DNA of 63,858 bases, counting the filler. It is 5 parts of 5 records of this genome, joined end to end, with 100 filler letters (N's around TTAATTAATTAA, not from the genome) between each part and the next. Parts side by side here need not be neighbours in the genome. Positions count along the whole stretch, not along the records: positions 13,549 to 40,693 come from DRR723986_8680; positions 40,794 to 51,294 come from DRR723986_8688; positions 51,395 to 58,726 come from DRR723986_8689; 2 more parts are not named here. The stretch is one strand, 5' to 3'. Below, in pieces: positions 13,549-58,726 of this stretch. Each line of letters starts with the position of its first letter. The first letter of the stretch is position 1. The notes beneath the pieces are model-generated. The model was not told where the DNA came from and searched no databases. It saw nothing but the letters and a program-made list of their open reading frames with translations. A program made the translations under genes and the position numbers.

Positions 13549-13777
13549 GACTAAGTCTCAAGTCTTGAGACTCACAGGATGTTAACTCACCGGGAGCCAG
13601 ACTGCGAAACCCAAGTAATCGTGAAGCAAAAACAGATATTCCACCAACAACCAGCCAGAGTGACTCAAACTCTTGTGCTCCAAGAGCTACCCACCATCTT
13701 TCACTCTCCCCTTCTTAACACCAACTCAAATTCTGCATTTATACCATACGCGCCCGCCCTGCACGCGATATAGACAC

Positions 13778-15007
13778 TCAGTCTATTCGCAGGGCCGCAT
13801 AACTGACTGCTGAAGCACGTTCGCGCTCATCCCACATCTGATAGTCAAGGAGTGTGGCGCTCTGCGGGTTTAACATTTGCATCAGAGTGTATATCGGTGA
13901 AAGACCGCAGATACGGCGCTTGTCATCGACTGCGGAGACGAGACGGAAAAAACGGTCTGAGTCGCCGGCGCGGATCGCTTCGATTAAAGCCCGATCTTCT
14001 TCGCGGAGCTGCGTGAACTGTGTGTGTGCATCAAAACTATCACCAAACTTACGGCCGATATGCGCAAAATCAACGCTGGCAACGTAGACCACGTTAAGCC
14101 CGGAATCATCGAGGACTGATTTTAAGGTGTCGACAAATTCCACAAATCGTGCGCTGTCGCGTGGGAGGCTGCGGGCCCGAACAAACTCGTAAAACGATCC
14201 GATCAGGAGCGGCAGAACACGCGGACAGCGATCCCCATACAGTCTCTGGATGAATGGAATGTGAAATTCGATTGAATGTTCGATGCGATGTGCGCGTTCT
14301 TCGCGGCAGAGGTCAAAACCTAAACGACTGTCGAGTTCTTGCCAGATGTCACGTGCTGTTTCGACCTGGCCCAGTGGCGTCTCCAGGTCCTTAAACAAGG
14401 GCATAAACCAGTCGTCACGACCGTAATGTGACGTCGCCAGCACAACAACAAGGTCGGGAGTAGCATGTGCTATTGACTGATATGCCGGGGCATAGGTGGC
14501 GGCACCAATTTTTAAATCGATATGCGGTGCAATGACAGCACTGGATGTTTGTGCCGGCACCGGGCCTGCGGAGGAATTCTGTTTAAGTAAGTCATCGACG
14601 AACTGTTTAAGTTCGGCGGCTGAATCCGGATATGAAGATCCCGCGTGAAATGCGGGACGCACAGTGGCAGCTACAAATTCGCGGTCAACCTCTTGGCGGC
14701 GCACCTCGAAATTGTTGTTTAACAACATGGCGTTATCATCCAACAATTGCAGGGCCTTGCGCAGTTCAGTACTTGCACTCTGGTGACCTGCGGCGCCTTC
14801 CAAATGACCTGCGCGCTCAAGATCCTGCAGACTGCGCTGCCCGTTCAGGAGTTCAAAACGTTGGAATGAACACGGCAGTGAGATGATCCGCTCGGGCGCG
14901 TAGCCCTGTGTGTCATAAGCCAGCAATTGCTCAAAAGGCCCCTGCTTCCACGGAAATATTTGGACTTCGGGACGCAGGGGAGCAATTGGACTTAAGGGAT
15001 CGAGCAT
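13778..15007 (-). CDS. MEMO1-family protein (AmmeMemoRadiSam system protein B) with N-terminal extension
   Basis: RPAFHAGSSYP, IAPHID, EHSIEFH, SVDFAHIG, ICG and VSYA motifs. Confidence 0.85.
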   Translation of the reverse strand: MLDPLSPIAPLRPEVQIFPWKQGPFEQLLAYDTQGYAPERIISLPCSFQRFELLNGQRSLQDLERAGHLEGAAGHQSASTELRKALQLLDDNAMLLNNNFEVRRQEVDREFVAATVRPAFHAGSSYPDSAAELKQFVDDLLKQNSSAGPVPAQTSSAVIAPHIDLKIGAATYAPAYQSIAHATPDLVVVLATSHYGRDDWFMPLFKDLETPLGQVETARDIWQELDSRLGFDLCREERAHRIEHSIEFHIPFIQRLYGDRCPRVLPLLIGSFYEFVRARSLPRDSARFVEFVDTLKSVLDDSGLNVVYVASVDFAHIGRKFGDSFDAHTQFTQLREEDRALIEAIRAGDSDRFFRLVSAVDDKRRICGLSPIYTLMQMLNPQSATLLDYQMWDERERASAVSYAALRID

Positions 15008-15028
15008 GTAAATGTTTAATCGGTCAAC

Positions 15029-16186
15029 TTAGTTGAGTGTGGGGTCATCAACACTTGTGTGGTCATCATTAGACGGGTTGGCATTTGATGAATCTTCGCT
15101 GGACTGCTCTGCATCGTCTTCACGTTCTTCGGAGCCGAAGAGCGCATCGGCAAAGTTGCGCGAATCGAAGTGTTGGAGATCTGCAATCTGTTCGCCGACG
15201 CCGATGTAGCGAACCGGGATCTTAAATTCGTTGGCAATTGCGATGACGACACCACCTTTGGCGGTACCATCGAGTTTGGTGAGCACCAGGCCGGTGATCG
15301 GTACAACTTTCATGAATTCGCGCGCCTGCTGAATCGCATTCTGACCGGTTGTAGCGTCAAGCACCAGGAAGACTTCGTCGGGCGCAGTTTCCTTGAGTTT
15401 TTTCATGACGCGACCGATTTTCTCAAGCTCTTTCATGAGCTCAACTTTGTTGTGCAGGCGGCCGGCGGTATCAATAATTACCACGTCAGCATCGCGGGAC
15501 TGGGCTGCCTGTACCGTATCGTAAGCAACAGCAGCGGGATCAGCGCCATGGTGTTGTTTGATGATGTCAACACCGGCACGTTCGGCCCAAACTTCCAGTT
15601 GTTCGTTGGCGGCGGCACGGTAGGTATCGGCAGCGCCGATGACGACGTTTTTACCGCCTTCACGGTAGTTGTGTGCCAGCTTGCCGATGCTGGTGGTTTT
15701 ACCAACACCGTTTACGCCGACGACCATGATGACGTGCGGACGGCCTTCGGGCGGTACGCTAAACGTACGATCGAGTTCGCTGGAGGGGGACTTGATCAGG
15801 ATCTCGGAGATTTCTTGTTTGATGATCTCGTAGAGTTTACCCGAGTCTTCGATATGTTCTTTGCGCACCTTGCGGCGCACATTATCGATGATTTCTGTTG
15901 TTGTTTTGACACCGATATCGGCAGTGATCAGAATTTCTTCGATTTCTTCAAGCAGGTTGTCATCAATCTTACGGCCGGCGCCGAGGACGCGCGTGAGGCG
16001 ATTGACCAGACCTGAGCGGGTTTTAGACAGGCCTTCTTTAAGGCGATCGAGCTTAAGGGCTTTTTTGGCACCGGCGGCTACGTTAGAGATCTTCTCGGAT
16101 GCTTTCTCCTTAGCCGATGAGACCTTCTCTTTAGCCGACTCTTTGGCTGTCGAGACCTTCTTTTTGATCTTGTCGAAGAAACCCAT
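15029..16186 (-). CDS. ftsY: Signal recognition particle receptor
   Basis: GVNGVGKTT, DTAGRL, DATTGQNA and TKLDGTAKGG motifs. Start at MGFFDK. Confidence 0.96.
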   Translation of the reverse strand: MGFFDKIKKKVSTAKESAKEKVSSAKEKASEKISNVAAGAKKALKLDRLKEGLSKTRSGLVNRLTRVLGAGRKIDDNLLEEIEEILITADIGVKTTTEIIDNVRRKVRKEHIEDSGKLYEIIKQEISEILIKSPSSELDRTFSVPPEGRPHVIMVVGVNGVGKTTSIGKLAHNYREGGKNVVIGAADTYRAAANEQLEVWAERAGVDIIKQHHGADPAAVAYDTVQAAQSRDADVVIIDTAGRLHNKVELMKELEKIGRVMKKLKETAPDEVFLVLDATTGQNAIQQAREFMKVVPITGLVLTKLDGTAKGGVVIAIANEFKIPVRYIGVGEQIADLQHFDSRNFADALFGSEEREDDAEQSSEDSSNANPSNDDHTSVDDPTLN

Positions 16187-16280
16187 GTATTGACTCCACA
16201 ACTAACTGTATGATGAAGCGAGCGGTGCTCACGAATGTGCAAAGACTCCAGACGAATTCAGGGCATCATAATTTCCCCGC

Positions 16281-16808
16281 TCATAGCGAGGACGATTTTA
16301 GCTTCAATTGTTGACGCATTCGCCAGCCATAGACGCCGAGCGATGCAAGCATAAGCAATATGGCCAGCATTTGCGCAGCCATTGTCATCCAGGGCGCAGC
16401 CCCAAGTACAATCATTACCAAACTAACACCAATAGCCACGACGGCGGCTTTGCCAGTGTAATTTGAGGGAGGGACAACTTCCAGACGGCGACTGAGGTAC
16501 ACTCCGGCCAGCAGAATCAGTACGTCGCGCGCAAGAATCGCACCGGCGAACCACCAGGCCACACTACCTTTAAGCAGCAGGACCACTACGGCGGATCCCA
16601 CAAAAATTTTGTCTGCGAGCGGATCGACAATTTTACCGAGTTCGCTGATTTCATTGCGACGGCGCGCTACATACCCGTCGGCGATATCCGTGAGGTAGGC
16701 CACAATTCCAATGCCGATAGCCCAGATTGCCATGTCGTTCCAGAGAGCCCAGGCCATGGGTGGAACGAGAAGCAGGCGCGAGAAGCTGATGAAGTTTGAG
16801 ACTGTCAT
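16281..16808 (-). CDS. CDP-alcohol phosphatidyltransferase (PgsA-like)
   Basis: TDIADGYVARR...LGKIVDPLADK signature. Confidence 0.9.
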   Translation of the reverse strand: MTVSNFISFSRLLLVPPMAWALWNDMAIWAIGIGIVAYLTDIADGYVARRRNEISELGKIVDPLADKIFVGSAVVVLLLKGSVAWWFAGAILARDVLILLAGVYLSRRLEVVPPSNYTGKAAVVAIGVSLVMIVLGAAPWMTMAAQMLAILLMLASLGVYGWRMRQQLKLKSSSL

Positions 16809-18277
16809 GTATCAATTGTTCCAGTCTGGTTGCGATTTCCAGCGGCAGACAGGTTTAGTGAACGGCGCTGAATTCCAATGCTTAGAATTATGATTGCCAC
16901 GAGCAGACCGGGATACATTGGTTCGATTTGCGACATCCAGGGCAGGTCAGCCAGATAGGGCAGCACAATCCAGATCAATGACGTACCGGAGGCCAGAAGC
17001 ATTAGAACGGCGGCAAATCCATCCCTGAGCGTCCAGCGCGTGCTAAAACTGAGGAGTAGAGGGAACAGCAGGCCGGGAATCGCCACGGAACCCGTCAGGT
17101 ATAACAAACTTACGACTGAATTGCCGAGTAAGGCCAAACCGACCGCCAAAACGGCAGCGATTGCAATGCCGATGCGGCTCAGGATCGTGGCCGCCTGAGC
17201 GTCTGTTCGCGGAGCGGCACCCAACAAAAATCGCCCAAGACGCGTGGAATGCAAAATGTCGTTGCCAATCGTCACACCGCTGATAAAACCGAGACTGTCG
17301 AGTGTTGACATGACGGTCGAGAGCAGACCAACCACAAAAATACCTTTGATCACTGACGGCAGAACCGCGTCGCCGAGGAGCGGCAATGAAGAGAGCGGGT
17401 CGTCGGTAGCAATGTAGGCGCGGGCGTAGAGACCACAAATCAGTACGAGACTGTCAAAGACGACCCAGAAACCCATGGAAACAAAAATCCCATTGCGCGC
17501 AACTTTGCCGCTGACGGCAGCGGCACAACGCTGGTGGTAGGTTGGGTCAATAAACGTAAACAGAGCCAACATGTACCAGACCAGCAAATATTGCCATGAG
17601 AAACCACCGCTGGGATCGAGATGCGAAGATGGCAGCGCCGCAAGCATTTGCTCGGGCGAACCAAAATAGTCGAGTGTGAAGTAGAGTAGAAATGCAAAAC
17701 CGAGGTACATGAGTGTGAACTGCAGAACATCGGTATACACGCCGCCGCGCAAGCCGCCAACCAGCAAATAGCTCAGCGAAAACAGGGCGGCAAGGACGAT
17801 GCAGATAGAACGATCCCAGCCGGAGATCAGCTCTACCAGAACGCCAACGGTCAGGACATAACTGGCGGGAATCGTGATGATCAGGATCAAAAAGGAGGCG
17901 ACACGTGCGGAGCCGGTGCCATGCCGCGACTTTATCTGCTCCGGAATTGTGAGCCCGGTGGAGGCGCGCACACGTTTGGCCAGGAAAAGCGCAAACAAGA
18001 AGGAGCTGATGTAATAGGGCAGCATAAAACATACCCAGGCCACAATGCCACCGGTGTAAATGAATTCACCAACCCCGAGGATTGCACCGTAGAATGTAGC
18101 TACGAGTGTCATGACAAACAGCGGCATGGTCAGTCGCCGTCCGGCAAGGATGAACTCGGTGCGTGAGTCGCCCGAATCGGCGGCTTTATTGCGGCGGCGC
18201 GCCACGATGAAACCGGCCAGCTGGATAGCTACAAAGTAGAGCGCAATTACGATGAGATCGGCTGAACTGAGGTTCAC
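16805..18277 (-). CDS. Sodium:solute symporter family protein
   Basis: FILAGR, GGLRGGVYTDVLQ, QR..AA and STVMSTLDS motifs, with about 13 TM segments. Confidence 0.88.
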   Translation of the reverse strand: MNLSSADLIVIALYFVAIQLAGFIVARRRNKAADSGDSRTEFILAGRRLTMPLFVMTLVATFYGAILGVGEFIYTGGIVAWVCFMLPYYISSFLFALFLAKRVRASTGLTIPEQIKSRHGTGSARVASFLILIITIPASYVLTVGVLVELISGWDRSICIVLAALFSLSYLLVGGLRGGVYTDVLQFTLMYLGFAFLLYFTLDYFGSPEQMLAALPSSHLDPSGGFSWQYLLVWYMLALFTFIDPTYHQRCAAAVSGKVARNGIFVSMGFWVVFDSLVLICGLYARAYIATDDPLSSLPLLGDAVLPSVIKGIFVVGLLSTVMSTLDSLGFISGVTIGNDILHSTRLGRFLLGAAPRTDAQAATILSRIGIAIAAVLAVGLALLGNSVVSLLYLTGSVAIPGLLFPLLLSFSTRWTLRDGFAAVLMLLASGTSLIWIVLPYLADLPWMSQIEPMYPGLLVAIIILSIGIQRRSLNLSAAGNRNQTGTIDT

Positions 18278-18345
18278 TATTGGACCTTGATTGGACCTTG
18301 CGATTGGGCCGGTTTAGAGAAAGGAGCTTAAGACTCCCCCACCTG

Positions 18346-18384
18346 AAAAACAAAACCCCACGGCGGAATGCCGTGAGGTTTATT
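18346..18384 (-). terminator. Intrinsic terminator downstream of the epimerase gene
   Basis: Minus strand AAACCTCACGGC-ATTCC-GCCGTGGGGTTT followed by TGTTTTT. Confidence 0.65.
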
Positions 18385-18479
18385 CAATCAACTGATCAAT
18401 CAATTGACGTCCGGGCGGCGTGCCTCAAGCTGAATTGCAGCCGGTGTGACACCCAGGACTCAAACGCACACTCGCGGGC

Positions 18480-19403
18480 TTAGGACTGTTCCTTGAACCA
18501 TTCGATCGTGCGGATCAGGCCTTTTTCCAGATTAGTTTCCGGTTTCCAGCCGAGGGCTTTGAGCAGTTTGCGGTTTGAGCAAACGCTGCGGTCCTGCTCG
18601 CCATCCTGCGCGGGGCCGTAGGTTTCTTCAGCATCCGCCATTCCCATGCGGTATTTGAGGATGCGGAAGATGGTATTGACACTGTGCTCTTCGCTGGTTG
18701 AGCAGTTGTAAATACCTTTGGCTTTTTCATCCAGCGCCAGAACGTTCGCACGCACAACGTCATCAACGAAGTTGTAGTCGCGTGTTTGTGTACCGTCGCC
18801 AAAGATGACTGGGGTTTCGCCGGCCATCATTTTGCTGATGAAAATCGCGACTACTCCGGCTTCACCTTTTGGATTCTGGCGTGGGCCATAGACGTTGGTG
18901 TAGCGGAAGATGACGTGTTCGATATCGTGAACGGTCTTGTAATAGACCAGATATTTCTCATTGGCGAGCTTGGAAACGCCGTAGGGCGAGCAAGGACGCT
19001 TGGGATGGCGCTCATCGGCCGGGAAGTATTTCTGTTCGCCGTAGATGGCGCCGCCCGTGGATGAGAAGATGATCTTTTTGACGCCGGTTTCGCGCGCGGC
19101 TTCATAGAGATTGATCCCGCCAATCACGTTTACCTGGGCATCGAAGCCCGGTTCTTTGACTGACTCGCGCACATTTGCCTGTGCGGCATGATGGCTCAGA
19201 ATATCAAATCGCTCTTCCTCAAAGATTTCGGGAATCTCTGGGTCGGTAATATCGATTTCGATAAACTTGGCTTTGGGGTTGACGTTTTCCTTGAGGCCGG
19301 TTGAGAGGTTGTCGATCACAACAACGTCATGGCCCTCTTCGATATAGGCATCGACGATATGCGAGCCAATAAAACCGGCGCCTCCGGTAACAGCGATTTT
19401 CAT
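18480..19403 (-). CDS. NAD-dependent epimerase/dehydratase (UDP-glucose 4-epimerase-like)
   Basis: TGGAGFIGS, YGVSK and NVYGPRQ motifs. Confidence 0.92.
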   Translation of the reverse strand: MKIAVTGGAGFIGSHIVDAYIEEGHDVVVIDNLSTGLKENVNPKAKFIEIDITDPEIPEIFEEERFDILSHHAAQANVRESVKEPGFDAQVNVIGGINLYEAARETGVKKIIFSSTGGAIYGEQKYFPADERHPKRPCSPYGVSKLANEKYLVYYKTVHDIEHVIFRYTNVYGPRQNPKGEAGVVAIFISKMMAGETPVIFGDGTQTRDYNFVDDVVRANVLALDEKAKGIYNCSTSEEHSVNTIFRILKYRMGMADAEETYGPAQDGEQDRSVCSNRKLLKALGWKPETNLEKGLIRTIEWFKEQS

Positions 19404-19841
19404 AATCCAGCCTTACTCCATTTGCATTACTGAATAGACTGTGTGCAGGTGCAACCGTGTTTTATACACTGCCGCCCCTAAAAGTTCACCAGCGCGGCAC
19501 TCTCCCTCTGGGAGTTTTCCGCGTTGATATGCACACTCTGATTGCCGGATACGGCGCACTGTCTTGCGCGCGATTAAGCGGTATACGACTTTAACAACCG
19601 CCCGGCCTTGCAGTCCATGCCGTTTGCAATTCTATTGGAGTCGGGTTCATGTGGCCAGGTACTCTGCGGCCGCGGTGGGTGAACCAAATCGACCAAATCG
19701 CAAGACGACACGGCGATGAATTTAGCTACTGCAATTTTCAATATACGGCTATGTACGCACATAGCCAGCGCTTGATGCCGTCCGCACTGCTGCAGGGCAT
19801 GCGGCAGAATGGTTCGGCACAAACTGAATAGTCTTGAGACT

Positions 19842-21164
19842 TTAGTCTTTCTGGAGCGCACGACGGGCGATGTCACGACGGAACATCACGTTTTTGAAGC
19901 CGACTGCCTGTACGTTTGCATAGGCCGCCGTCACCGCTTCCCTAAGTGAAGCAGCCTGCCCGCAGATTGCCAGGACACGTCCGCCATTTGTCAGCAAGGT
20001 GCCGCTTTCGTCGCGGCGCGTTCCGGCGTGATAGACCATGTCATCCGCCACGTTTTCGAGGCCAGTGATTTCCAGGCCTTTTTCGTATGCGCCGGGATAT
20101 CCACCTGAGGCCAGCACAACACAGCAGCGGTGCTCGTCGGCCGTGGCTTCAGCAGCTGATTTGTCCAGCTTGCCGTTTGCGGCACTCAGTAGCAGGCGAG
20201 CAAAGTCGCCGCGGAACAGGTCCAGGATTACCTGGGCCTCCGGATCGCCCAGGCGCACATTAAATTCGACGACGGCAACTGCGCCGGCGGCGTCGATCAT
20301 AAGGCCACAGAAGAGGCAACCGATAAACGGCGTGCCTTCAGTCTGCATGCCGCGCAGGACGGGTTCAATTACTTCGGTTTCGATGCGGCGCAGAACTTCG
20401 GGCGTCACAACCGGTGCCGGAGCGTAGGTCCCCATGCCGCCGGTATTCGGCCCTTTGTCATCGTCAAACGCACGTTTGTGATCCTGCGCAGGCGCAAGTG
20501 TAACGTAGTCTTTACCGTCGCAGATTGCGAAGACCGAGGCTTCCTGACCTTCCAGAAAATCTTCGACAACAACGGTAGCGCCGGCAGCGCCAAAGCGACC
20601 GTCAAAAAACTCATCGATTGCGAGCAGGGCGGCATCTGTGTCTTCGCAGATGACAACACCTTTACCGGCGGCGAGCCCGTCGGCTTTCAGGACAACTTTA
20701 CCGCTTAGGGTTTGCAGGTAGGCGTGTGCGGCTTCGCGTTCGGCGTCAGTAAAAACGCGGTAGGCGGCGGTGGGCACGCCGTAGCGCTGCATAATTTCTT
20801 TGCTGAATTTCTTGGAGGCCTCCAGTTGCGCGGCGGCCTGCGATGGACCAAAAACGGCAACGCCGGCGGCGCGCAGGGCGTCACTCAAACCTTCGGCCAA
20901 GGGCTGCTCGGGACCAACAACGACCAGGTTAATCGCATGTGTGCGGCAGTATTCAACGGCTGCGGCATGATCACTCATGTTAACATTTACGGCTACCTGT
21001 GCGAGAGCGTCGATGCCCGGATTGCCCGCTGCGGCATGTAATTCAAGTGTGGCAGGCGAGCGATGCAGCGCCCGTGCCAATGCATGTTCGCGGCCACCAG
21101 ATCCAACCAGAACTACACGCATGACATCAGATGTTTGAGCAGATGAATTCGGAGAAGTTTGCAT
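19842..21164 (-). CDS. purD: Phosphoribosylamine--glycine ligase
   Basis: [28 protein letters not shown] and [10 protein letters not shown] motifs. Confidence 0.96.
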
Positions 21165-21303
21165 ATCGGATCGTTTGGGTTTTACCTGCAGGGAAATCGC
21201 GATTGACTGTTCAGGAGAAATTGTTTAATAAATTTTCATTAGTGTCGCCGGCAGCGCTTAAATGCTCGCCCTCAAACTTTCGGCGACGCTCGCAGCGACA
21301 AAC

Positions 21304-22035: not shown

Positions 22036-22086
22036 GATTTTTTTGTTTATCTCCGGGTCGTCAATGAGAATCCATTGAGAAAGCGT

Positions 22087-45454: not shown

Positions 45455-45467
45455 ATGGTTGATCCAC

Positions 45468-50692: not shown

Positions 50693-51294
50693 GTGAATAT
50701 CCTGTTCGTCATGTACGACCAGCTGCGCTTCGACTATCTGAGCTGCGCGGGACACCCTTATCTGCACACACCGAATTTTGACCGGGTTGCCGCCAGGGGC
50801 GTGCGCTTTACCAATGCCTATGTGCAATCCCCCATATGTGGCGCCAGCCGGATGAGCTTCTACACCGGGCGCTATGCGTCCTCCCACGGGGCACAGTGGA
50901 ATGGCTACCCGCTCCGGGTCGGCGAACACACGCTGGGCGATCACCTGCGCAAGGCCGGCATGGACTGCTGGCTTATCGGCAAGACGCACATGAAGGTGGA
51001 TGCGGAAGGCATGACCCGGCTGGGGCTGTCCCCGGACAGCATCATCGGTGCCCGGCAGGCCGAGTGCGGATTTGATGTCTGGGTGCGGGACGACGGTCTC
51101 TGGGGCGAAGGGCCGGACGGCTTTTATGACGAAAAACGTTCGCCTTACAACGAATACCTCAAGTCCCGCGGCTATGCGGGAGAGAACCCCTGGGCGGATT
51201 TCGCCAACGCCGGCGTCGAAAACGGCGAGAAGGCGTCCGGCTGGATGTTCGACAATGCGGACAAGCCCGCCAATATCCGCGAGGAAGACAGCGA
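50693..51294 (+). CDS. Sulfatase/phosphonate monoester hydrolase family protein (truncated)
   Basis: NILF.M.DQLR, TPNFD, CGASR (formylglycine-type CxxxR) and GKTH motifs. Confidence 0.88.
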
Positions 51295-51394: not shown

Positions 51395-51666
51395 GGTCGA
51401 GCCCTTAGGGCTGGATCCCGTTGTCTTGAAGACTGAATTCAAGAGAATTCCAGCTAACATCCACTCAAGATCTCCTCAATTCTTCGAGCTGTGAATCTTG
51501 CGGCCGGCAATCAGCCCCCACGCCCGGAATTCAGCTCCTTAAGCCCTTCAACCCGTAACTCGCAGCTTAACAGCTGTCGGCACGCCGCGGCGCAATCCGC
51601 CGATTTTGAAGTCTTATCAGGTAACAGTTAACAAGCTGAATACCCGCGTCAGACCAGGATAAAACC

Positions 51667-54600
51667 ATGAATACATTTCAGCAAAACCACAGTCCATTTC
51701 CTCAGGCAGGCCCGCAAAACAGTCGGCAGGCGGGCGAACAGAAAACACAGCGCATTCCCGGCACAGAACACTCGCTGGAATTGCACTACGATTCTGAAGG
51801 ACGGCTCTTGCGTCTGACAGGGGGCGGCCGCGAGTACATCAGCACCGATAATACCAAACGTCGTTTTGATTCTGGTTTTGCAGAGTTTGAAGAAATATTT
51901 GCCGCCGGTGCGCTTCTGCGCCGCGTAACAGTTATGGGGCGCAGCTGGACAGAGTTTTATCGCTGGGATGACCAGGCGCGTCCAACTGAAGTGGACGGCA
52001 TGCGTTTAACACGCGATGACTCTGATCGCGTAACTGGCTGCGAAGGGCATGGCCAGAGCTGGGAATACAGCTATGCCGATGACGTACTTGTACATGTTAA
52101 AAGTCATGCGACTGAGCGGCTGTTAAGTTATACGGCCGACCAAAAGCCTGCTGCAGTTAAACACGGTGACAAACAAGAAAACCTCCAATACGATTTGAAC
52201 GGCGATCGCCGGGCAATAGAGGGTACTCCCAAGACCTGGCACCGCGATGAAGAGGGGCGCCTGTGGGCTGTCTCCGATCAGCAGGGAACAATCCTGAGTA
52301 CTTACCTGTGGGACGAATTTGCATGCCTGGCACGCATAGATGGCCCCCCGGGCGGACCAATTGTTGAAGTTTATTCACTGGATTTGGGCGGAACGCCGGT
52401 ACGTGTAGCTACAGCCGAAAATACAACAATTATTCCACGCGATTTGTTTGGTGAAAACTTAACAGCACATGCTGGAGTGCCGGGACTGTTTGGCGGTGCG
52501 CAGCACAAAGGCATGGTGTATTTTGCCTATCGCAGTTATGACCCCAAACTGGGTTTGTTTAACTCGCCGGATCCACTCGATGGCAGCGCCGAAGATCCGC
52601 GCCGTGAAGAAGGGTTCACTGGCACCTTGATAGCCGAAAAAGCGACGGCGGCGGGTTACGGAGTCTGCGGCTACGATACGTATACTTACTGCGATCCGAC
52701 CGGTGCAATCGCCTGGTACTACTTGCTTTCGTCATTAACATGGGCTTTCCCGAATAACTGGTTCCTGACCTTGGGAATGGACTGGACGATTAACTTTTGG
52801 GGTAGCCTATTCTCCGGCAATATCGGTCGCTTTTTTAACTTCAGGCATATTCACAGCGACAGGTTAAACGTTGGTGGTGTGCTGCGTGACGGCGTCATGG
52901 CCAGCGAACGCGCGTTTGCCACACAGCACTATATCTGGGAGCAATTTGACTCCTTTGACCAGGCTAAAAATGTAATGGTCTGCGCGCCGGGTGATCGATT
53001 TTTACCGGGCTACTATGGCACGACCCTGCGCATGGTCGAAAACTCCAGCAGCCGAGCGTTTATGCTGCGCGGAATGCGGCGTTATGCTTACGACGGTGAT
53101 ATCAGCAATGATTATCCGGCCGGCTGGACGCGGCATGGCGGTGAGGCCGAAGCAATTGCACCAGGAGTGTTAACACCTCACTTTCCAGGTGGCGGCTTGC
53201 ACCTGGGGGACATGTTTACTGAATCGATTAACTGTACACCAACGTTCAGACCACCAGTACAGGGGCCTACAGATGCTACGATCGTAGAGCTGGAGCCGCT
53301 TGGGCCGATTGGCGTTGGGACTGCGAATACCAGAGTTGAAAGTTCGGTGCCCGAGCATGGCCTGGGTTTAAGTGAGAACGATTGGGTGGGCATGGCCGAC
53401 CCCAGCAACCGAACATTTGTTACACAAATACGTTCAGCGGTCGAAGAATCGAACGGCACAACCACGCTGCAGTTTAACCCTGATCCGACCGGGCTGGATA
53501 CTGCCGAACTGCGACTGCGCGGCCTGGAGGAAGACCGAACAACCGAAAATTTAACAAATATGACGGACCCGAACCGTCTGGAGACGACGGGTTCTTCTGA
53601 GCAATATGCTGTCGGTGACTATTTGCATCTGCGGCAGGGAAGTGATGATCGCGGATTTTCATTCATTACGGCACTCGAAGCGCGCGTGCAGCTGGATGCT
53701 GCGTTCACGGGGCCTCCAGGTTGGCCCGGAGCTGAGGTATTGCCGGTGGTTACCAGTGGATCTGTTAATACCGCCGAGTTAACAGCCTCGGGAACTGATA
53801 TTAACTTTCCGGATTCTCCGCGGCCCAGTAGCGGAGACTTAATCCGAGTATTCGACGGTACAAATGATATTGCTGTAGTTGTTGGAGCTGAAACGGGTAA
53901 CCAACGCGCAGTGGACCGCAGTCTGGCAGTCATGGGTGGCACGGGAACGTCCGTTAGCTGGCAAAACTTAACCGCCGGTGGCTCCATTGGAATTGCCGCT
54001 ACTTTTGACATCACGGCGCAGTTAACATTTGCACCCGAAGTTGTGCGCACCGCACCTTCCAGCGGATTCCTGGCTGTTCGCAGGCAGGACGATGTGGTGC
54101 AGGTACGCCGCGTGACGAGTCGTGATCACGATGCAATCGTCCTGGGGCCGGCAAAAACCGGAATTGCGGCAGACTACAGTGTCGAGCTGTTTAAGGCCAA
54201 AGACCCGAATGCAACCGACATGGGCATTCGTACAGTCTTCCAGCTGGCAGCGCCATTGACCACCACCGGTGCCGTCGCCCTGCAAATTCATCAGTTAACA
54301 AATGACACGCTGGCCGCTAATCTGGGCGGCACAAGCCTCGCGGGTTTTAGTCTGAATGCCGAGACGCTGAGTCAGCCGCTAACAACATATAACGCGAATG
54401 AGTTACGCCCATCGCAGGTAATAGCGCTGGATGACGGCAGCAACCAGGAAGTCGCACTGATTCGCAGTGTGGTCCGCGATGTGCTGCTGGACCGCGATCT
54501 GCCGATTCCCTCGGCAACGACTGACCTGCGCGCCGTACTGCTCGAAACCACGGGTGTTAACTACAGCGCCACCCGCATTTCAAACTCACGCCTGGTAGTG

Positions 54601-57600
54601 CTGCCGAACGCCTTCGGTGCGACTACCAGACTCGAAATGCCGCGTTTCTTTGAAGGCGAATTAGTTGAAGTGCAGTACTCAGCGGGTGGAACCCAAAATG
54701 ATCAGTTCCGGGTGACGGCGGTCTCGGGAACGCGTTTAACACTTGCATTCGGCCGCGCTGACTTGCCGGCAGGTGCCAGTGATTTCCGCGTGCGCAAATT
54801 GGCAGTTGCCGATCCGGATACGGGCGGCGGATATATCGCAATTAACGGCGCACCTTCACTCAGCAATCTTGGTGGCGCCAACACGCGCATTCTGCGTTTT
54901 CATCTCTGGAATTGGTCCAACCTGACCAATACCGAACGTATTGGTATAATCCATGACGGACAGACGCTGCCGGCGCGCATTCGTTTGCAAACGGCGTATG
55001 ACTGTACGCAGGCCGATCCGAACCCCGAGATTTTGAGTGTTGCGTCTTCGGTTGGAGGTTCAACGACCGGAATCTCAATGCCGCAGTTTGTTGTCGGCGA
55101 GCGCGTCGAAGCCGCCTGGGACCCCAGTGGCGGTGGAGGACGCCAGACGGAATTGTTTAACGTTTCAGCGGTTTCAGGAAGTGTTGTAACGGTCTTGCAT
55201 GACGGCGGCGCAGGCATGATTACGGCCGGCGCATCCAATATTACACTGCGCCATTTAGGGACGCTCGATATTAATTTAGGTGCGGCGCCCGCATCTGCAA
55301 GCGGCACAATTGCCATCCGCACACTGGCGCATTCGAACAACAACATCTGGGCTCCTGGTTTTACCGCCGAAACCGGCCAGACAATTGTACTTGCACCCGA
55401 CATCACCGGGACTTTAACACCCGGCAATCGCCAGGTTGTAGTTATACCTTTGCGCGAACTGGGGACACCAGCCGCAGCAGTTATGGAGCCCGGGGGAGTG
55501 CTCGTGCCGGAAGATCCGGAAAATTGGGAGCACAACCGCTATCAGTCCCTGGTGGAACACGAGCTGCGCCACACCGAGCAATATCTGTGGTGGGGACCAC
55601 TTTGGTTCACAGCATTTCCGCTCTGGGCTTTTGATCTTGGCTTTTCCTATGCCGCGGACGTGGATCTGCCGCGCTGGTCGGCCTTTGTGGCGGCAACGAT
55701 AGAACGCGACAGCAACAATAATGCGATTCGCCTGCTGCGCATCCCAAATGCTGAAGGCATTGAATTTGGCGATAACTCACACGTGCAGATTTTTCGCGGC
55801 TCGCTGCGTGAAACCGCTGAGTTTAACGCCGAACGCGCCAGTGACCTGTTCCAGATTAAACCCAAGGCTTCGGGAGAAACGGCACTGCCCGACGGCCCCG
55901 TGTTTGTCCGCAAACTTAACTCCGCACTCGGCCCCTCAGGCCAGGACTGGTACAGTGGAATTTATCAGGTATTTGATACTTTAACGCCGGGCGGCTTGTT
56001 AAACATCCTCTTTGGCGCCGGTTATGGTTCGATGATGCTCCTGCTGGTGCGCATTCCCTGGATGATTGCCAAAGCCTGCTCCACGTATACACGCCATGCC
56101 GTGACAGTATTGCCTTCACGCAATGAATTACAGTTGAGTGAAACCGGGCGGCGATCCGAATACACAAACGAACGCCGCGTAATTATTCGCCAGAACGGTC
56201 AGGACGACTTCGTACGCACACTGTCAAGCGTGGACGAAAGCGGAAAGTTAACACTCGGTTCAAGCCTTGGTTTTGAAGGCGCTGCCGAAGTCAGTCCCTA
56301 TGACACCAGCGTCGACAGTCAGTATTGGTACTGGCAAAAATATTACCCCGCAATTGTAAAAGCTGACAGCTTTGCGTCAATTACGGCGCAGGAAGAAGAC
56401 GGCGACCGCCTGGAAGTCTCGACTTTTGATCGCCTGCATATTATTGGCGAGAAAAATTCCAACCACGAGCGTTTCACCTTAACAACGACCGTAACGGCGG
56501 TTTCCGGCAATGACATTGAGTTAACAGATGCACTGCCTACCGACGCACTTGGCTCCTCGGATCAGGTACTGCGTGTTGCTAAAATCGGCCGCCAGGATAG
56601 TCAGGGACACGTTGAAAGTTTATTCCTCGATCAATACGGTCTGATGGGGCCCATGCGTTGGGTTTCCGATCCATTCCGTCAGATGCACCTGCGCAATATT
56701 GAAGAACCGGGCTCTGCCTGGGAGATAATCTCGCGGATTGCACGTTACATCTGGGGCACACATAACTGGAGCCTTGGACTGCCCGGTCACGTGTTTTTTG
56801 ACCGGCTTTTCCCAGGCGATGATGTTGCTTACCTTTCCGATATTGAGCAGGATTCATCCAACCAGAGTGGTGATCTCTATTCTGCGCTCGGGCGTCTGCG
56901 CGGAGATGTTAACATCGGCGATGGGTTTAACGCAACGATGGTGTTGGGCGATATTGCGCGCTACTGGTATTGGCCGAACCCACGCACGACGATGTTCCCG
57001 ACGCAGGCCGGTTGGTGCAACTCCAACTATAACCAGGATGTTCCCGGTGTTAACACCCGTCCCGCCGTTTGTGTCATGCCATTTGTAACAGCTGAATCAG
57101 GCGACGCAGCGCCGGGCAACGGAGCTGAGCCAAACAATAATGCTACAGCCGGCGCAGTCGGAACCCAACCGGGTCTGGCAGTCGCCGATGTTTTTTCTGA
57201 CAAAAATCCTGGTACTCCCGAGGATGTGCCCGGTGGTGGCGGGCCGCGACGAATCATGGCCAGCAATCGCGGATGGATTCCCACAAGCAAAACGCTCGGC
57301 CGCACGCAGGGAATGTACGTCGCCTTTACCACTCCAACAACTGGGGCGGACCGGCATCGCGTCACGACCGACAACGGAATTCTGCAGGCTGCCGAGGCAC
57401 GCCATGCGCAGGACGAAGGCAAGCAGAAGCTGCTCTACAATGTTAATGTTACCGACGTGACTGTAATGTTAAACGGCATTGCCGTCAGCGAGGGCATGAC
57501 AATTAATTTGTTAAAAACGCAGCGTGCGCGTTTTGTATGCACACCCAACAACAACCGACGCTATCGATTAACGGTATTACGTCCGGCGGACGGCGCGGTA

Positions 57601-58485
57601 GTACGCCGCAGTGACGAATTGGAAATTGACATGCAGGCGGCAGCTGCGAACAGCTCCGAACCTGTTGAAATCAGCCGCTACTATCGTTTTGACCCATCTT
57701 CCGGTCAGTTTGAGACTGGCGGCCTGATGCAGCACGGTGTGCACCTTCCAACCGATATCGACGTTGCGGTACGCCGTTTAACAGTTAACACTGTCGACAC
57801 ACCAATTGTCTTAAACAACCTGGCGGATGCAATCAACTTTGGCTCTTACGGTGGCACAATTCCGAGTCTTACTCCCGGCGCAGAGGTATTCGTGTTTATT
57901 GCCGCCAGTATCTTAAACTTTAACCCGGTAATTGGCTATCCGGGGACGCCGGCAATCGTTCACGCTTCGATTATTCAGGCCGATCGCACGTCCGCCGCAC
58001 CCGATACAAGCAAGGCTTTTCTGGGAACGGGCGCTAACGCAGGTGGCGTTTTTAGTTTATCGATTGACGCTAACGATCCACCTGAGGAGGAGGCGCACAT
58101 CACGGTCGACGTCTCAGTTGGAGCAGCAGCCAGTCCGGAGAGTTTAACACAGATTACGATTCCGATTACGGGGCATTTCCTGGCAACTTCGGGGGGCGCG
58201 TACACTGCGGCGGCTGGTGGCACGATCACACTTGACTGCGCAAATGTGGGTGGAGGCGGAGTCACACCCGACCCTGCTACGGTAGTGGTAACGATGCCGG
58301 ACGGTTCGGCACCTGCGGAAGTCAGCCCAGGAGTTCCGGAGTTAACATTTGCTGCGGGCGGCCCCAACCAGTTGGTGGTAACTGTTAACCCGGGTTTCAG
58401 CGGTGTCCTTGGCAATCGCCGTTTGTTAATAGAGGAGAGCGGCAACACATCGAACAAAGCGCGCCGGACGATCATATTAACATAA
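51667..58485 (+). CDS. 2272-aa protein: short YD/Rhs N-terminus with Rhs core (DPTG at aa 343-346), then a ~1900-aa C-terminus with repeated beta modules and HExxH
   Basis: YDSEGRLL, YDLNGDR, RSYDPKLGLFNSPDP and CDPTG motifs. HELRHTEQ at 55558-55581. AGGA RBS upstream. Uninterrupted 6.8-kb ORF. Confidence 0.85.
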   Translation: MNTFQQNHSPFPQAGPQNSRQAGEQKTQRIPGTEHSLELHYDSEGRLLRLTGGGREYISTDNTKRRFDSGFAEFEEIFAAGALLRRVTVMGRSWTEFYRWDDQARPTEVDGMRLTRDDSDRVTGCEGHGQSWEYSYADDVLVHVKSHATERLLSYTADQKPAAVKHGDKQENLQYDLNGDRRAIEGTPKTWHRDEEGRLWAVSDQQGTILSTYLWDEFACLARIDGPPGGPIVEVYSLDLGGTPVRVATAENTTIIPRDLFGENLTAHAGVPGLFGGAQHKGMVYFAYRSYDPKLGLFNSPDPLDGSAEDPRREEGFTGTLIAEKATAAGYGVCGYDTYTYCDPTGAIAWYYLLSSLTWAFPNNWFLTLGMDWTINFWGSLFSGNIGRFFNFRHIHSDRLNVGGVLRDGVMASERAFATQHYIWEQFDSFDQAKNVMVCAPGDRFLPGYYGTTLRMVENSSSRAFMLRGMRRYAYDGDISNDYPAGWTRHGGEAEAIAPGVLTPHFPGGGLHLGDMFTESINCTPTFRPPVQGPTDATIVELEPLGPIGVGTANTRVESSVPEHGLGLSENDWVGMADPSNRTFVTQIRSAVEESNGTTTLQFNPDPTGLDTAELRLRGLEEDRTTENLTNMTDPNRLETTGSSEQYAVGDYLHLRQGSDDRGFSFITALEARVQLDAAFTGPPGWPGAEVLPVVTSGSVNTAELTASGTDINFPDSPRPSSGDLIRVFDGTNDIAVVVGAETGNQRAVDRSLAVMGGTGTSVSWQNLTAGGSIGIAATFDITAQLTFAPEVVRTAPSSGFLAVRRQDDVVQVRRVTSRDHDAIVLGPAKTGIAADYSVELFKAKDPNATDMGIRTVFQLAAPLTTTGAVALQIHQLTNDTLAANLGGTSLAGFSLNAETLSQPLTTYNANELRPSQVIALDDGSNQEVALIRSVVRDVLLDRDLPIPSATTDLRAVLLETTGVNYSATRISNSRLVVLPNAFGATTRLEMPRFFEGELVEVQYSAGGTQNDQFRVTAVSGTRLTLAFGRADLPAGASDFRVRKLAVADPDTGGGYIAINGAPSLSNLGGANTRILRFHLWNWSNLTNTERIGIIHDGQTLPARIRLQTAYDCTQADPNPEILSVASSVGGSTTGISMPQFVVGERVEAAWDPSGGGGRQTELFNVSAVSGSVVTVLHDGGAGMITAGASNITLRHLGTLDINLGAAPASASGTIAIRTLAHSNNNIWAPGFTAETGQTIVLAPDITGTLTPGNRQVVVIPLRELGTPAAAVMEPGGVLVPEDPENWEHNRYQSLVEHELRHTEQYLWWGPLWFTAFPLWAFDLGFSYAADVDLPRWSAFVAATIERDSNNNAIRLLRIPNAEGIEFGDNSHVQIFRGSLRETAEFNAERASDLFQIKPKASGETALPDGPVFVRKLNSALGPSGQDWYSGIYQVFDTLTPGGLLNILFGAGYGSMMLLLVRIPWMIAKACSTYTRHAVTVLPSRNELQLSETGRRSEYTNERRVIIRQNGQDDFVRTLSSVDESGKLTLGSSLGFEGAAEVSPYDTSVDSQYWYWQKYYPAIVKADSFASITAQEEDGDRLEVSTFDRLHIIGEKNSNHERFTLTTTVTAVSGNDIELTDALPTDALGSSDQVLRVAKIGRQDSQGHVESLFLDQYGLMGPMRWVSDPFRQMHLRNIEEPGSAWEIISRIARYIWGTHNWSLGLPGHVFFDRLFPGDDVAYLSDIEQDSSNQSGDLYSALGRLRGDVNIGDGFNATMVLGDIARYWYWPNPRTTMFPTQAGWCNSNYNQDVPGVNTRPAVCVMPFVTAESGDAAPGNGAEPNNNATAGAVGTQPGLAVADVFSDKNPGTPEDVPGGGGPRRIMASNRGWIPTSKTLGRTQGMYVAFTTPTTGADRHRVTTDNGILQAAEARHAQDEGKQKLLYNVNVTDVTVMLNGIAVSEGMTINLLKTQRARFVCTPNNNRRYRLTVLRPADGAVVRRSDELEIDMQAAAANSSEPVEISRYYRFDPSSGQFETGGLMQHGVHLPTDIDVAVRRLTVNTVDTPIVLNNLADAINFGSYGGTIPSLTPGAEVFVFIAASILNFNPVIGYPGTPAIVHASIIQADRTSAAPDTSKAFLGTGANAGGVFSLSIDANDPPEEEAHITVDVSVGAAASPESLTQITIPITGHFLATSGGAYTAAAGGTITLDCANVGGGGVTPDPATVVVTMPDGSAPAEVSPGVPELTFAAGGPNQLVVTVNPGFSGVLGNRRLLIEESGNTSNKARRTIILT

Positions 58486-58507
58486 AAGTTAACATTAAAC
58501 AGATCAT

Positions 58508-58578
58508 TTCTTGACCGCTTTGAGCCCCGCCTTGGGGGCGGTTCTCAGGCTCTTTTGATTTTTATGTTTGTCGCTGAT
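58508..58578 (+). repeat. Dispersed ~75-nt intergenic element, copy B (terminator-like)
   Basis: TTCTTGACCGCTTTGAGCC-CCGCCTTGGGGGCGGT-TCTCAGGCTCTTTTGATTTTTATGTTTGTCGCTGAT. Confidence 0.75.
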
Positions 58579-58726
58579 GCTGCAGACCTGAGTCTGGGAT
58601 TCGGCAATTGAGACTGGAGTGAGTGGAGCTCTCTGCGCAGCAGACTCAAGTACTTGATGCTGAGACTTTGAGACTTGAGGTTTTGAGCCTCGAAGGATTA
58701 CGGCTCACAGCCCTAAGTGCTGTGAG

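Follow-up and report, generated by a model that had tools for sequence, protein, structure and literature searches.

The enrichment of the palindrome GTTAAC in two contigs of the DNA analysed here is probably a by-product of a wider clade signature, one that is centred on the tetramer TTAA and arises from a context-dependent mutation or repair bias. The window is a stretch of 63 858 nucleotides in which five contigs are joined by N-linkers, and all positions are counted along the whole window (Table 1). In the proposed mechanism the rare TA step would be concentrated in TTAA by a strand-symmetric, DNA-level signature of a Kapabacteria-like clade, the most likely cause of which is a mutation or repair bias that depends on sequence context and built up gradually within the clade. 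The bias would have become more visible as the window's lineage fell from ~57–59% to ~53% GC, and codon selection would oppose it in some genes. Within genes it is seen as the rare leucine codon TTA standing mostly before A, and as a preference for GTT before AAC and AAA.

Comparing a word with its own sub-words is the test that removes a false lead to a 'new HIP1'. The finding left standing is a context bias that is specific to the clade and of unusual strength, with an excess of TTAA and with TTA-A dominating a rare codon. It is also a tractable case of context-dependent mutation or repair shaping codon-pair usage in an uncultured lineage.

Table 1. Features of the window, with positions along its full length.
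Feature	Position	Strand	Description
Contig 1	1..13448		Outside the feature under study; 63.5% GC; TTAA O/E0 0.33; 1 GTTAAC
Contig 2	13549..40693		Kapabacteria-like chromosome segment; TTAA-centred bias
Contig 2, GTTAAC sites (n = 21)	13581, 20979, 22111, 23153, 24079, 25236, 25359, 26732, 27011, 27589, 27752		Exact match
Contig 2, GTTAAC sites (rest of n = 21)	29947, 30496, 31040, 31111, 31505, 32147, 32209, 32308, 39475, 40019		Exact match
TTAA-poor block, contig 2	13587..20978		2.8 TTAA per kb, about the composition expectation; 0 GTTAAC
TTAA-rich block, contig 2	20979..32313		7.1 TTAA per kb; 18 of the 21 GTTAAC of the contig
T9SS-tail protein and MCP gene, in TTAA-rich block	26600-31584		Without counterpart in the syntenic loci L001/L002
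Second GTTAAC-free stretch, contig 2	32314-39474		4.5 TTAA per kb
Contig 3	40794..51294		Outside the feature under study; 60% GC; single TTAA, O/E0 0.06; 0 GTTAAC
Contig 4	51395..58726		Assigned to the same lineage as contig 2
Contig 4, GTTAAC sites (n = 14)	51627, 53169, 53778, 54021, 54294, 54556, 56247		Exact match
Contig 4, GTTAAC sites (rest of n = 14)	56520, 56908, 57049, 57784, 58341, 58384, 58488		Exact match
Large ORF, contig 4	51667-58485	+	2272 aa; holds 12 of the 14 GTTAAC sites of the contig
Contig 5	58827..63858		Not clearly within the feature; 54.8% GC; TTAA O/E0 1.30

GTTAAC, its null models and its sub-words

GTTAAC occurs 37 times in the window: 21 times in contig 2, 14 times in contig 4, once in contig 1, once in contig 5, and not at all in contig 3. 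An earlier, sequence-only reading had listed the sites of contigs 2 and 4, and all 35 coordinates are exact matches; its single copies in contigs 1 and 5 were likewise confirmed. That reading had estimated 53–55% GC and ~6 and ~1.5 expected copies, close to the measured 52.5% GC in contig 2 and 54.5% in contig 4 and to the 5.9 and 1.5 copies predicted by composition. Together the two contigs hold 35 copies against 7.4 expected at order 0 and 6.6 at order 1, and dinucleotide shuffles of the whole window gave a mean of 8.65, with 0 of 100 reaching 37. As had also been noticed, the sites lie mostly in genes (31 of 35 in ORFs, 4 intergenic), where 17 are read as GTT-AAC (Val-Asn) and 14 as G-TTA-ACx (Leu-Thr), and one-mismatch variants are enriched, e.g. 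GTTAAA/TTTAAC with 49 against 16.

The excess survives the codon-preserving shuffle that had been suggested as a check. In genes, 31 copies are seen against 8.2 ± 2.5 after synonymous-codon shuffling and 6.7 ± 2.5 after codon-order shuffling, and 0 of 1000 shuffles of either kind reach the observed number. A dicodon-preserving shuffle, the other form of the suggested check, retains in-frame hexamers by construction, and its DNA equivalent is the order-4 Markov model. Here the excess is lost: for contigs 2 and 4 the order-3 model predicts 20 copies and the order-4 model 34.3, where 35 are observed.

GTTAAC is therefore not the enriched unit, because its count is predicted by its sub-words. The ratio of observed to expected copies under the maximal-order Markov model (O/Emax) comes to 1.02 for the window and, for the two nearest related genomes, to 0.81 (G001) and 1.04 (G002); it spans 0.81–1.14 in the seven samples that contain GTTAAC, the 40 kb sampled from G012 having none. 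The corresponding range for TGTTAACA is 0.80–1.11. Treating the two flanks as independent gives the same answer, as 208 TTAA × 0.39 (G at −1) × 0.42 (C at +1) yields 34 copies where 35 are seen. Measured over composition in the window, TTAACA/TGTTAA (6.9-fold) outrank GTTAAC (4.7-fold, or 5.3-fold over order 1), and TTAAAC/GTTTAA (4.9-fold), which do not contain GTTAAC, rank beside it. In the samples of the relatives GTTAAC reaches 1.65-fold (G001) and 2.1-fold (G002). Synonymous shuffling of the window genes leaves an excess both of TTAACA (42 against 9.2) and of TTAA (178 against 102.6). The excess of the longer words is explained by the shorter ones, as in a genome signature. GTTAAC is TTAA with its two commonest GC flanks, each side independent of the other, and is not itself the word that is recognised or iterated.

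Among the 16 NTAN words TTAA alone exceeds expectation, with ratios of 1.97 in the window and 1.30 in G001/G002 against 0.49 in the comparators (16 loci of similar GC). It makes up 16.7% of all TA steps in the window, 11.1% in G001/G002 and 3.8% in the comparators. Its O/Emax of 1.54–1.65 indicates a synergy beyond TTA × TAA / TA, and the preferred flanks are G or T on the 5′ side and A or C on the 3′ side (KTTAAM). Species differ strongly in how often palindromes occur. For comparison, Table 1 of PMC3077040 lists a mean occurrence/expectancy of 0.84 for TTAA (variance 0.10) over 200 genomes.

Two simple origins of the TTAA excess were rejected. The first, W-clustering, is not supported by AATT, which is unenriched under synonymous shuffling (1.10-fold). 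The second is a deamination sink, in which CTAG, CTAA or TCGA would be turned into TTAA; CTAA/TTAG are depleted, TCAA/TTGA and TCGA are over-represented, and depletion of one-step precursors gives no simple fit to the TTAA excess.

Origin of the contigs and distribution of the bias

Contigs 2 and 4 are placed, on sequence comparison, in a Kapabacteria-like lineage. The genes of contig 2, which include FtsY, PurD, AlaRS, biotin carboxylase, MutS2, LeuRS and MiaE, are syntenic with the loci L001 and L002 at amino-acid identities of 57–93%, and its AlaRS is 83–84% identical to those of G001 and G002. The contig contains 148 TTAA (O/E0 1.72), and contig 4 contains 60 (O/E0 3.06). Orthologues of the large ORF of contig 4 span its full length in G001 (70% identity) and in G002 (62%); the ORF is without a Pfam match. 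No internal repeats were found in it by TRF, self-blastp or self-blastn, so that its 12 GTTAAC sites are independent. The start of contig 4 overlaps the end of contig 2 by 17 nt, and the ends of both contigs lie in short palindromic repeats.

Contig 1, which carries an Rnf operon, comes from a different organism, and the source bin is mixed; its MetRS is only 36–37% identical to those of G001 and G002. Contig 3 (TRAP DctP, LysR, PdxA and an MR/MLE enzyme) and contig 5 (MbnB/DUF2063 and an AraC regulator) are probably from other organisms too, on evidence that is suggestive only: no counterpart in G001/G002 was found for the one ORF compared from each. Contig 5 has 1 TTAACA, counting both strands, against 1.6 expected. 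Given the MetRS and AlaRS identities, and since contigs 3 and 5 lack the signature, the scarcity of GTTAAC in contigs 1, 3 and 5 need not represent the rest of the genome. The TTAA bias is a practical marker for binning and decontamination, setting contigs 2 and 4 sharply apart from contigs 1 and 3.

That repeats, assembly or binning produced the whole pattern is scarcely credible, although the bin is mixed, contig 1 being foreign to it, and contigs 2 and 4 end in short palindromic repeats. The reading was rejected because the contexts of the GTTAAC sites all differ, the 2272-aa ORF lacks tandem or internal repeats, and the same signature is found in the independent assemblies of G001 and G002.

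In these two nearest relatives (5.6 Mb each) the bias is genome-wide. The GTTAAC/CAATTG ratio is 1.37 in one and 1.39 in the other, and its median over the 39 other related genomes searched is 0.17. A first survey took in 67 loci 8 kb or more in length, of which two, both from the nearest relatives, show a TTAA O/E above 1.1. In G004, the AlaRS of which is 71% identical, TTAA O/E0 is 1.03 and P(A after TTA) is 0.44; at the low end of the distance gradient, in G012, the values are 0.28 and 0.15. GTTAAC itself is nearly absent from some related genomes, with 11 copies in the 5.2 Mb of G012 and 16 in the 4.6 Mb of G041. The bias is common to close relatives and decays with phylogenetic distance. 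Of the original proposal, the part describing a DNA-level, lineage-specific excess stands, as the excess survives codon shuffling and is genome-wide in two relatives, while the part describing an iterated palindrome does not. The literature searched contained no account of GTTAAC over-representation, nor of a TTAA excess in Kapabacteria.

Coding frames, strands and site turnover

The bias acts at the level of DNA, not of translation. In the ORF sets of the relatives, which are crude longest-ORF greedy picks and not gene-caller output, the largest coding excess of TTAA is in the TTA-A frame (273 against 109 expected), whereas TTAA is slightly depleted in the xTT-AAx frame (514 against 596). Longer TTAA words are in excess in either permitted frame, xTT-AAC-A included, and TTAA overall only in TTA-A. 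T precedes TAA stop codons more often than expected (38 against 14.3). The non-coding DNA of the relatives contains 78 TTAACA against ~21 and 97 TTAAAC against 20–28, an enrichment of 3.5–4.8-fold, with a value of 0.43 for P(A after TTA). Words and their reverse complements match in frequency in four of the five stretches examined, the exception being contig 4 (TTAACA 23 against 13). The pattern of a genome signature is thus observed, in coding frames, in non-coding DNA and symmetrically on the two strands.

Within genes, 68% of the TTA codons of the window and 61–75% of those of G001/G002 have A as the next base; the share does not exceed 47% in 50 other loci, and it is 13–29% for the other Leu codons. 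This last contrast would also follow from a translational codon context, in which the slow, rare Leu codon TTA is tolerated before A (a +1 slip meets TAA) and pairs of the GTT-AAC type are preferred. The position of the largest coding excess in the TTA-A frame agrees with this, as does the absence of the signal from genes that avoid TTA, and the failure of TTAA as a whole to be enriched in the xTT-AAx frame leaves room for a translational component. Such a cause is nevertheless improbable, in view of the enrichment in non-coding DNA, the value of P(A after TTA) found there and the enrichment of xTT-AAC-A. Furthermore, a translational effect should be strand-specific, whereas the coding strand of the window genes carries 42 TTAACA and a similar 36 TGTTAA.

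TTAA frequency varies from gene to gene (chi-square 663, 254 degrees of freedom, 255 ORFs), and the bias is weakest in the top GC3 quartile (O/E0 0.82). The TTAA-poor block of contig 2 encodes Memo, FtsY, PgsA, SSF, an epimerase and most of PurD; the TTA codon is absent from FtsY, PgsA and the epimerase, and SSF, the epimerase and SecG are without TTAA. None of 10 000 random placements produced a second-largest gap between GTTAAC sites as long as the 7167 bp observed. This gene-to-gene variation is not predicted by a uniform mutational bias alone.

The positions of GTTAAC sites are not conserved above background. Between the window and L001 2 of 8 sites are conserved, and between the window and L002 2 of 10 (background 21%); between L001 and L002 the figure is 12 of 16, on a background of 64–67%. 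All of these numbers are small. Because third positions of the window and its relatives are only 50% identical, substitutions cannot be polarised. Between L001 and L002, words containing TTAA are kept in 66 of 86 cases against 62 of 101 for AATT, and TTAAAC/GTTTAA in 42 of 54 against a background of 64%. This slightly better conservation could reflect weak selection.

It is unlikely that TTAA or KTTAAM is a weakly selected target, whether of a nucleoid or other DNA-binding protein, of a TTAA modification enzyme, or as a flexible TpA step for packing in a GC-rich genome. The height of O/Emax, the occurrence in non-coding DNA and at stop codons, the slightly better retention than AATT between G001 and G002 and the restriction to one clade all accord with such a target. 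Against it, the excess is only 1.3–2-fold, many housekeeping genes (SSF, epimerase, SecG) do without TTAA, neither periodicity nor positional conservation was seen, no candidate protein was found, and the trait changes by degrees across the phylogeny instead of being on/off. A Kapabacteria clade process that funnels TA steps into TTAA, through context-specific repair or modification or through weak selection for a TTAA-binding nucleoid protein, is similarly doubtful. If true, it would reshape the choice of Leu codons, with TTA almost only before A, and would represent a weak, tetramer-based analogue of HIP outside cyanobacteria.

Comparison with known iterated words

Like HIP1 (GCGATCGC) and the alternative cyanobacterial HIPs, GTTAAC is palindromic, occurs about once per kb, is found in at least two frames within genes and is lineage-specific. 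The sequence-only reading had proposed a system analogous to HIP1. On a HIP1-like reading the hexamer would be made or kept by a cognate (perhaps orphan) methyltransferase together with biased repair, or by selection of sites. The density in the window, ~1015 per Mb, falls within the 500–2500 per Mb stated for HIPs by Elhai (PMC4390886), the excess outlasts codon shuffling, and G001 and G002 have a beta-class N6/N4 methyltransferase in common. This reading is very improbable nonetheless, and is largely refuted by the Markov test, in which O/E against sub-words is ~1. By the figures given in PMC5861425 HIP1 is 15–300-fold over-represented with conserved sites, and a value of at least 15.5-fold is given by Elhai for the hexamer HIP GGCGCC (PMC4390886). 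The excess of GTTAAC is 2–5-fold and vanishes against its sub-words (in the window, 4.7-fold over composition and 1.02-fold at order 4). HIP genomes, as described in PMC4390886, have the palindrome at the top of the word list, overlapping words that derive from it, and a matching methyltransferase. In the present case the overlapping, non-palindromic TTAACA/TGTTAA stand above GTTAAC, the two flanks are independent, sites turn over without conservation above background, and none of the methyltransferases compared correlates with the trait.

The methyltransferase comparison covered the families PF01555 and PF02086. G001 and G002 share one PF01555 beta-class N6/N4 enzyme, 94% identical between them and encoded at L100 1405-2373 (minus strand), and the two PF02086 matches are in G002 only. 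Orthologues of the PF01555 enzyme, at 50–57% identity, are present in G012, G041 and G014, the GTTAAC/CAATTG ratios of which are 0.01–0.08, and presence of the enzyme showed no association with the ratio (Mann-Whitney p = 0.79). The sole N6/N4 family common to G001 and G002 occurs in GTTAAC-poor genomes as well, and gives no support to the methyltransferase-driven iteration that had been proposed.

Uptake sequences (the DUS of Neisseria and the USS of Pasteurellaceae) are non-palindromic 9–12-mers with a very large fold-excess and hundreds to thousands of copies. GTTAAC resembles them in being short and frequent in the genes of one lineage, and differs from them in that no long word dominates and complements are about equal in four of five stretches. 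A search through 34 kb from the window and 427 kb from the relatives yielded no uptake-type word, and with O/E against sub-words at ~1 the suggested uptake signal was abandoned. Two 10-mers, ACTTAAACAA and TGACAAACAA, show the highest over-representation in the relatives. The best, ACTTAAACAA, has 23 copies in the 427 kb, in varied and mostly coding contexts. TGACAAACAA, with 36 copies, is a separate element often found just upstream of start codons, and is not enriched in the window (6 matches with at most one mismatch against 3.9 expected). A long-motif reading was likewise rejected.

The TTAA skew resembles species-specific oligonucleotide and palindrome signatures in being pervasive, strand-symmetric, present in coding and non-coding DNA, and in fading with distance. 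Unlike the usual signatures, it has TTAA at 1.3–2.0-fold, where this word is normally at or below expectation, and as the sole TA-containing tetramer in excess. Restriction-driven avoidance of palindromes concerns the same word, GTTAAC, which is scarce in several related genomes; in the clade of the window the sign is opposite.

Contig origin and the GTTAAC excess

Contig 2 carries the housekeeping genes for FtsY, PurD, AlaRS, biotin carboxylase, MutS2, SecG, LeuRS and MiaE, as well as a T9SS-tail protein and an MCP. Among 79 AlaRS loci from one-genome-per-species contigs, the nearest relatives are L001 (84% identity) and L002 (83%); the remainder, mostly labelled Kapaibacterium, Ignavibacteriota or Chlorobiota, reach at most 64% full-length identity. 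Contig 2 follows both loci in gene order, each gene sharing 57-93% amino-acid identity, except for the T9SS and MCP block, which they lack. The single 2272-aa ORF of contig 4 has orthologues over its whole length in G001, the genome of L001 (70%), and G002, the genome of L002 (62%), and the start of contig 4 shares a 17-nt overlap with the end of contig 2. The two contigs are therefore of one lineage. Contig 1 (Rnf operon, 63.5% GC, without the TTAA signature) lies outside it; no more than 36-37% identity links the MetRS of this contig to those of G001 and G002. The gene content of contig 3 (TRAP/LysR/PdxA) and contig 5 (MbnB-DUF2063, AraC) is proteobacteria-style, and the single ORF tried from each had no counterpart in G001 or G002, which does not prove a different origin. 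The window mixes contigs from at least two organisms and the bin is probably contaminated. The TTAA signature is missing from contigs 3 and 5, with one TTAA in the 10.5 kb of contig 3.

Features of the window (63,858 bases, five contigs with N-linkers between them)
Feature	Coordinates	GTTAAC observed	GTTAAC expected (composition)	TTAA per kb
Contig 1	1-13448	1		
Contig 2	13549-40693	21	5.9	
GAGACT/AGTCTC inverted repeats, contig 2 start	13549-13580			
Contig 2 block	13587-20978			2.8
Contig 2 block	20979-32313			7.1
T9SS-tail and MCP genes	26600-31584			
Contig 2 block	32314-39474			4.5
17-nt string, contig 2 end	40677-40693			
Contig 3	40794-51294	0		
Contig 4	51395-58726	14	1.5	8.2
17-nt string, contig 4 start	51395-51411			
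2272-aa ORF (+)	51667-58485			
Hairpin, contig 4 end	58700-58726			
Contig 5	58827-63858	1		

The sequence-only reading had described GTTAAC as a highly iterated, HIP1-like palindrome in contigs 2 and 4. Every coordinate that it named is an exact match and its counts per contig stand. Together the two contigs hold 35 copies, against 7.4 (Markov order 0) or 6.6 (order 1) expected. Four are intergenic and 31 lie inside ORFs, as GTT-AAC (Val-Asn, 17) or G-TTA-ACx (Leu-Thr, 14). A synonymous-codon shuffle of each gene, keeping protein sequence and codon usage, gives 8.2 +/- 2.5 ORF copies and reached 31 in 0 of 1000 shuffles; a codon-order shuffle gives 6.7 +/- 2.5. The 2272-aa ORF alone has 12 copies (2.5 in the shuffle) and the other 17 genes 19 (5.5). 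A search of this ORF for tandem and internal repeats found none, so its sites are independent. The excess in contigs 2 and 4 is confirmed as correct and statistically real.

TTAA as the anomalous word

The expectation for GTTAAC in contigs 2 and 4 grows with Markov order: an order-3 model gives 20 copies and an order-4 model 34.3, next to the 35 observed. In the relatives, the ratio against a maximal-order model (O/Emax) is 0.81 in G001 (240-kb sample) and 1.04 in G002 (142-kb sample). A dicodon-preserving shuffle retains in-frame hexamers by construction; under its DNA analogue, the order-4 model, the excess is gone. The 208 TTAA of contigs 2 and 4 have a 5' G in 39% and a 3' C in 42% of cases, from which, with independent flanks, 34 GTTAAC are predicted. 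The hexamer is accounted for by its sub-words, and the iterated-palindrome reading is not supported. Non-palindromic words are enriched no less: over composition, TGTTAA/TTAACA 6.9-fold, TTAAAC/GTTTAA 4.9-fold and GTTAAC 4.7-fold; against the synonymous shuffle, TTAACA 42 versus 9.2, TGTTAA 36 versus 8.4, TTAAAC 34 versus 10.4, GTTAAC 31 versus 8.1 and TTAA itself 178 versus 102.6. CAATTG, equal in composition to GTTAAC, has 31 copies in contigs 2 and 4.

TA is under-represented (0.54-0.65 of expectation) and, among the 16 NTAN tetranucleotides, TTAA alone is above expectation, at 1.54-1.65 times the value from TTA x TAA / TA. CTAG (O/E 0.03-0.06) and CTAA/TTAG (0.11 in G001/G002) are strongly depleted; the 7.3 kb of contig 4 contain zero CTAG. 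The TTAA ratio is already known as a species-variable trait, with a mean of 0.84 and a variance of 0.10 over 200 genomes (Table 1, PMC3077040), which places the clade in the upper tail. The trait is graded over the phylogeny and clade-specific: of 67 loci with a length of 8 kb or more, two, L001 and L002, have a TTAA O/E (order 1) above 1.1.

TTAA relative to base composition (O/E0) and the context of TTA in contigs 2 and 4 and in related genomes
Sample	AlaRS identity to contig 2	TTAA O/E0	P(A after TTA)	TA steps in TTAA
Contigs 2 and 4		1.97	0.68	16.7%
G001	84%	1.29	0.63	
G002	83%	1.26	0.63	
G001/G002 (427 kb)		1.30		11.1%
G004	71%	1.03	0.44	
G015	68% / 51% (two segments)	0.87	0.40	
G033	70% / 57% (two fragments)	0.78	0.28	
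G037	62%	0.37	0.22	
G012	65%	0.28	0.15	
16 comparator loci, 50-64% GC		0.49		3.8%

In whole genomes of 5.6 Mb each, GTTAAC occurs 2346 times in G001 and 2145 times in G002, and its reversal CAATTG 1708 and 1539 times (ratios 1.37 and 1.39); in 39 other related genomes the ratio has a median of 0.17 and a maximum of 0.82. The seven samples with at least one GTTAAC give it an O/Emax of 0.81-1.14; the 40 kb from G012 have none. GTTAAC is nearly absent from the whole genomes of five relatives of G001: G012 (11 in 5.2 Mb), G041 (16 in 4.6 Mb), G007 (21 in 2.2 Mb), G028 (18 in 2.0 Mb) and G022 (39 in 5.6 Mb), each with hundreds of CAATTG. The strength of this avoidance suggests HpaI-type restriction pressure in these lineages.

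Possible causes: mutation bias, selection and translation

Coding context was followed in 255 long ORFs of the relatives (331 kb, greedy picks rather than gene-caller predictions) against a synonymous shuffle. TTAA is enriched in frame TTA-A (273 observed, shuffle mean 109) and overall unenriched as xTT-AAx (514, 596), and for longer words the enrichment extends to either frame: GTT-AAC (62, 41), G-TTA-AC (33, 8.4), TTA-ACA (35, 5.1) and xTT-AAC-A (93, 56.6). The base after a TTA codon is A for 68% of the TTA codons of contigs 2 and 4 and for 61% of those in these ORFs, where other Leu codons give 13-29%; over 52 surveyed loci, L001 (75%) and L002 (73%) stand apart from the other 50 (at most 47%). 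A translational codon-context effect would act on such pairs, and is ranked third and considered improbable. A T also precedes the TAA stop in 38 of the 255 ORFs (shuffle mean 14.3), and the 50 kb left as non-coding hold TTAA 472 times versus 326-359, TTAACA 78 versus about 21 and TTAAAC 97 versus 20-28. On the coding strand the words are about as frequent as their reverse complements, and near-parity holds on four of five contig stretches checked, the exception being contig 4 (TTAACA 23 versus 13). A strand-symmetric, DNA-level cause is favoured.

Window GTTAAC sites are kept in aligned orthologues at 2 of 8 positions in L001 and 2 of 10 in L002, at an identical-hexamer background of 21% and a third-position identity of 50%; the aligned word in the relatives is usually a synonymous or near-synonymous one of higher GC (GTCGAC, GTCAAC, GTGAAC, G-CTG-AC, G-TTG-AC). 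Between L001 and L002 (92-95% identity) GTTAAC is kept in 12/16 cases (background 64-67%), TTAACA/TGTTAA in 22/27, TTAAAC/GTTTAA in 42/54, and TTAA in 66/86 compared with 62/101 for AATT. This is at most a slight excess, which fits mutation bias or weak selection on TTAA; such selection is ranked second and thought unlikely. Ranked first, as the probable cause, is a context-dependent mutation or repair bias that would generate the TTAA excess.

The bias varies from gene to gene. Two 7-kb stretches lack GTTAAC, a pattern reached in 0 of 10000 random placements and not expected from uniform placement, and TTAA counts are over-dispersed across the 255 ORFs (chi-square 663, 254 degrees of freedom), with O/E0 at 0.82 in the highest-GC3 quartile versus 1.4-1.5 in the middle quartiles. 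In the window, FtsY, PgsA, an epimerase and SecG lack the TTA codon and have few or zero TTAA, and the 2272-aa ORF (55 versus 17.8), the MCP (20 versus 7.2) and MiaE (10 versus 2.3) are rich in it. Codon selection may override the bias in some genes.

Known systems and accompanying elements

Uptake sequences are long, non-palindromic words, and no word of this type was found in contigs 2 and 4 or in the 427 kb of G001/G002. HIP1 is 15-300-fold over-represented at conserved sites (PMC5861425). HIP genomes have the palindrome at the top of the word list, followed by its overlaps, together with a methyltransferase that matches it; for the hexamer GGCGCC, one of Elhai's HIPs, O/E is at least 15.5 (PMC4390886). 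Leaving the methyltransferase aside, the clade has none of these features and resembles HIP genomes in raw density alone. The methyltransferase search covered families PF01555 and PF02086. G001 and G002 have one PF01555 (N6/N4) enzyme in common (94% identity), under NCBIfam equivalog cut-offs, whose nearest solved relatives are the beta-class M.MboIIA, CcrM and M.RsrI; two PF02086 matches occur in G002 only. Orthologues in seven other genomes (50-57% identity) accompany GTTAAC/CAATTG ratios of 0.01-0.82, and presence of the enzyme is not associated with the ratio (p = 0.79), which lends no support to a methyltransferase behind GTTAAC within these families. Literature searches turned up no account of over-represented GTTAAC or TTAA in this group. 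What contigs 2 and 4 show is best placed among lineage-specific genome signatures. It is a compositional bias centred on TTAA, specific to the clade and graded within it, that markedly affects the context of TTA codons.

The 17-nt string common to contigs 2 and 4, GGTCGAGCCCTTAGGGC, includes the near-palindrome GCCCTTAGGGC, and contig 4 ends in the hairpin CTCACAGC...GCTGTGAG. These contig-end repeats look like REP-like elements breaking the assembly, and the related words AGCTGTGAGC and CTTAGGGC are over-represented in G001/G002. Another element, TGACAAACAA(A/G)A, has 36 copies in 427 kb of G001/G002 (L080-L099, L001, L002) versus about 0.4 from composition. Many copies follow GC-rich sequence and precede an ATG by about 10 nt, which makes it a candidate promoter or 5'-leader element for the clade, although it is unenriched in the window (6 matches at no more than 1 mismatch versus 3.9 expected).

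The product of the 2272-aa ORF, without a Pfam match, is a large clade-specific protein, conserved full-length in G001 and G002. The T9SS block encodes two proteins, one of DUF7619/DUF11 type that ends in a T9SS sorting tail and the other a Cache-HAMP-MCP chemoreceptor of 788 aa, flanked by the biotin carboxylase and MutS2 genes, which lie much closer together in L001/L002. Searches with tblastn for both proteins gave zero matches in these loci, and the block was either inserted in the lineage of contigs 2 and 4 or lost from the relatives. Its GC content (47-50%) is the lowest of contig 2.
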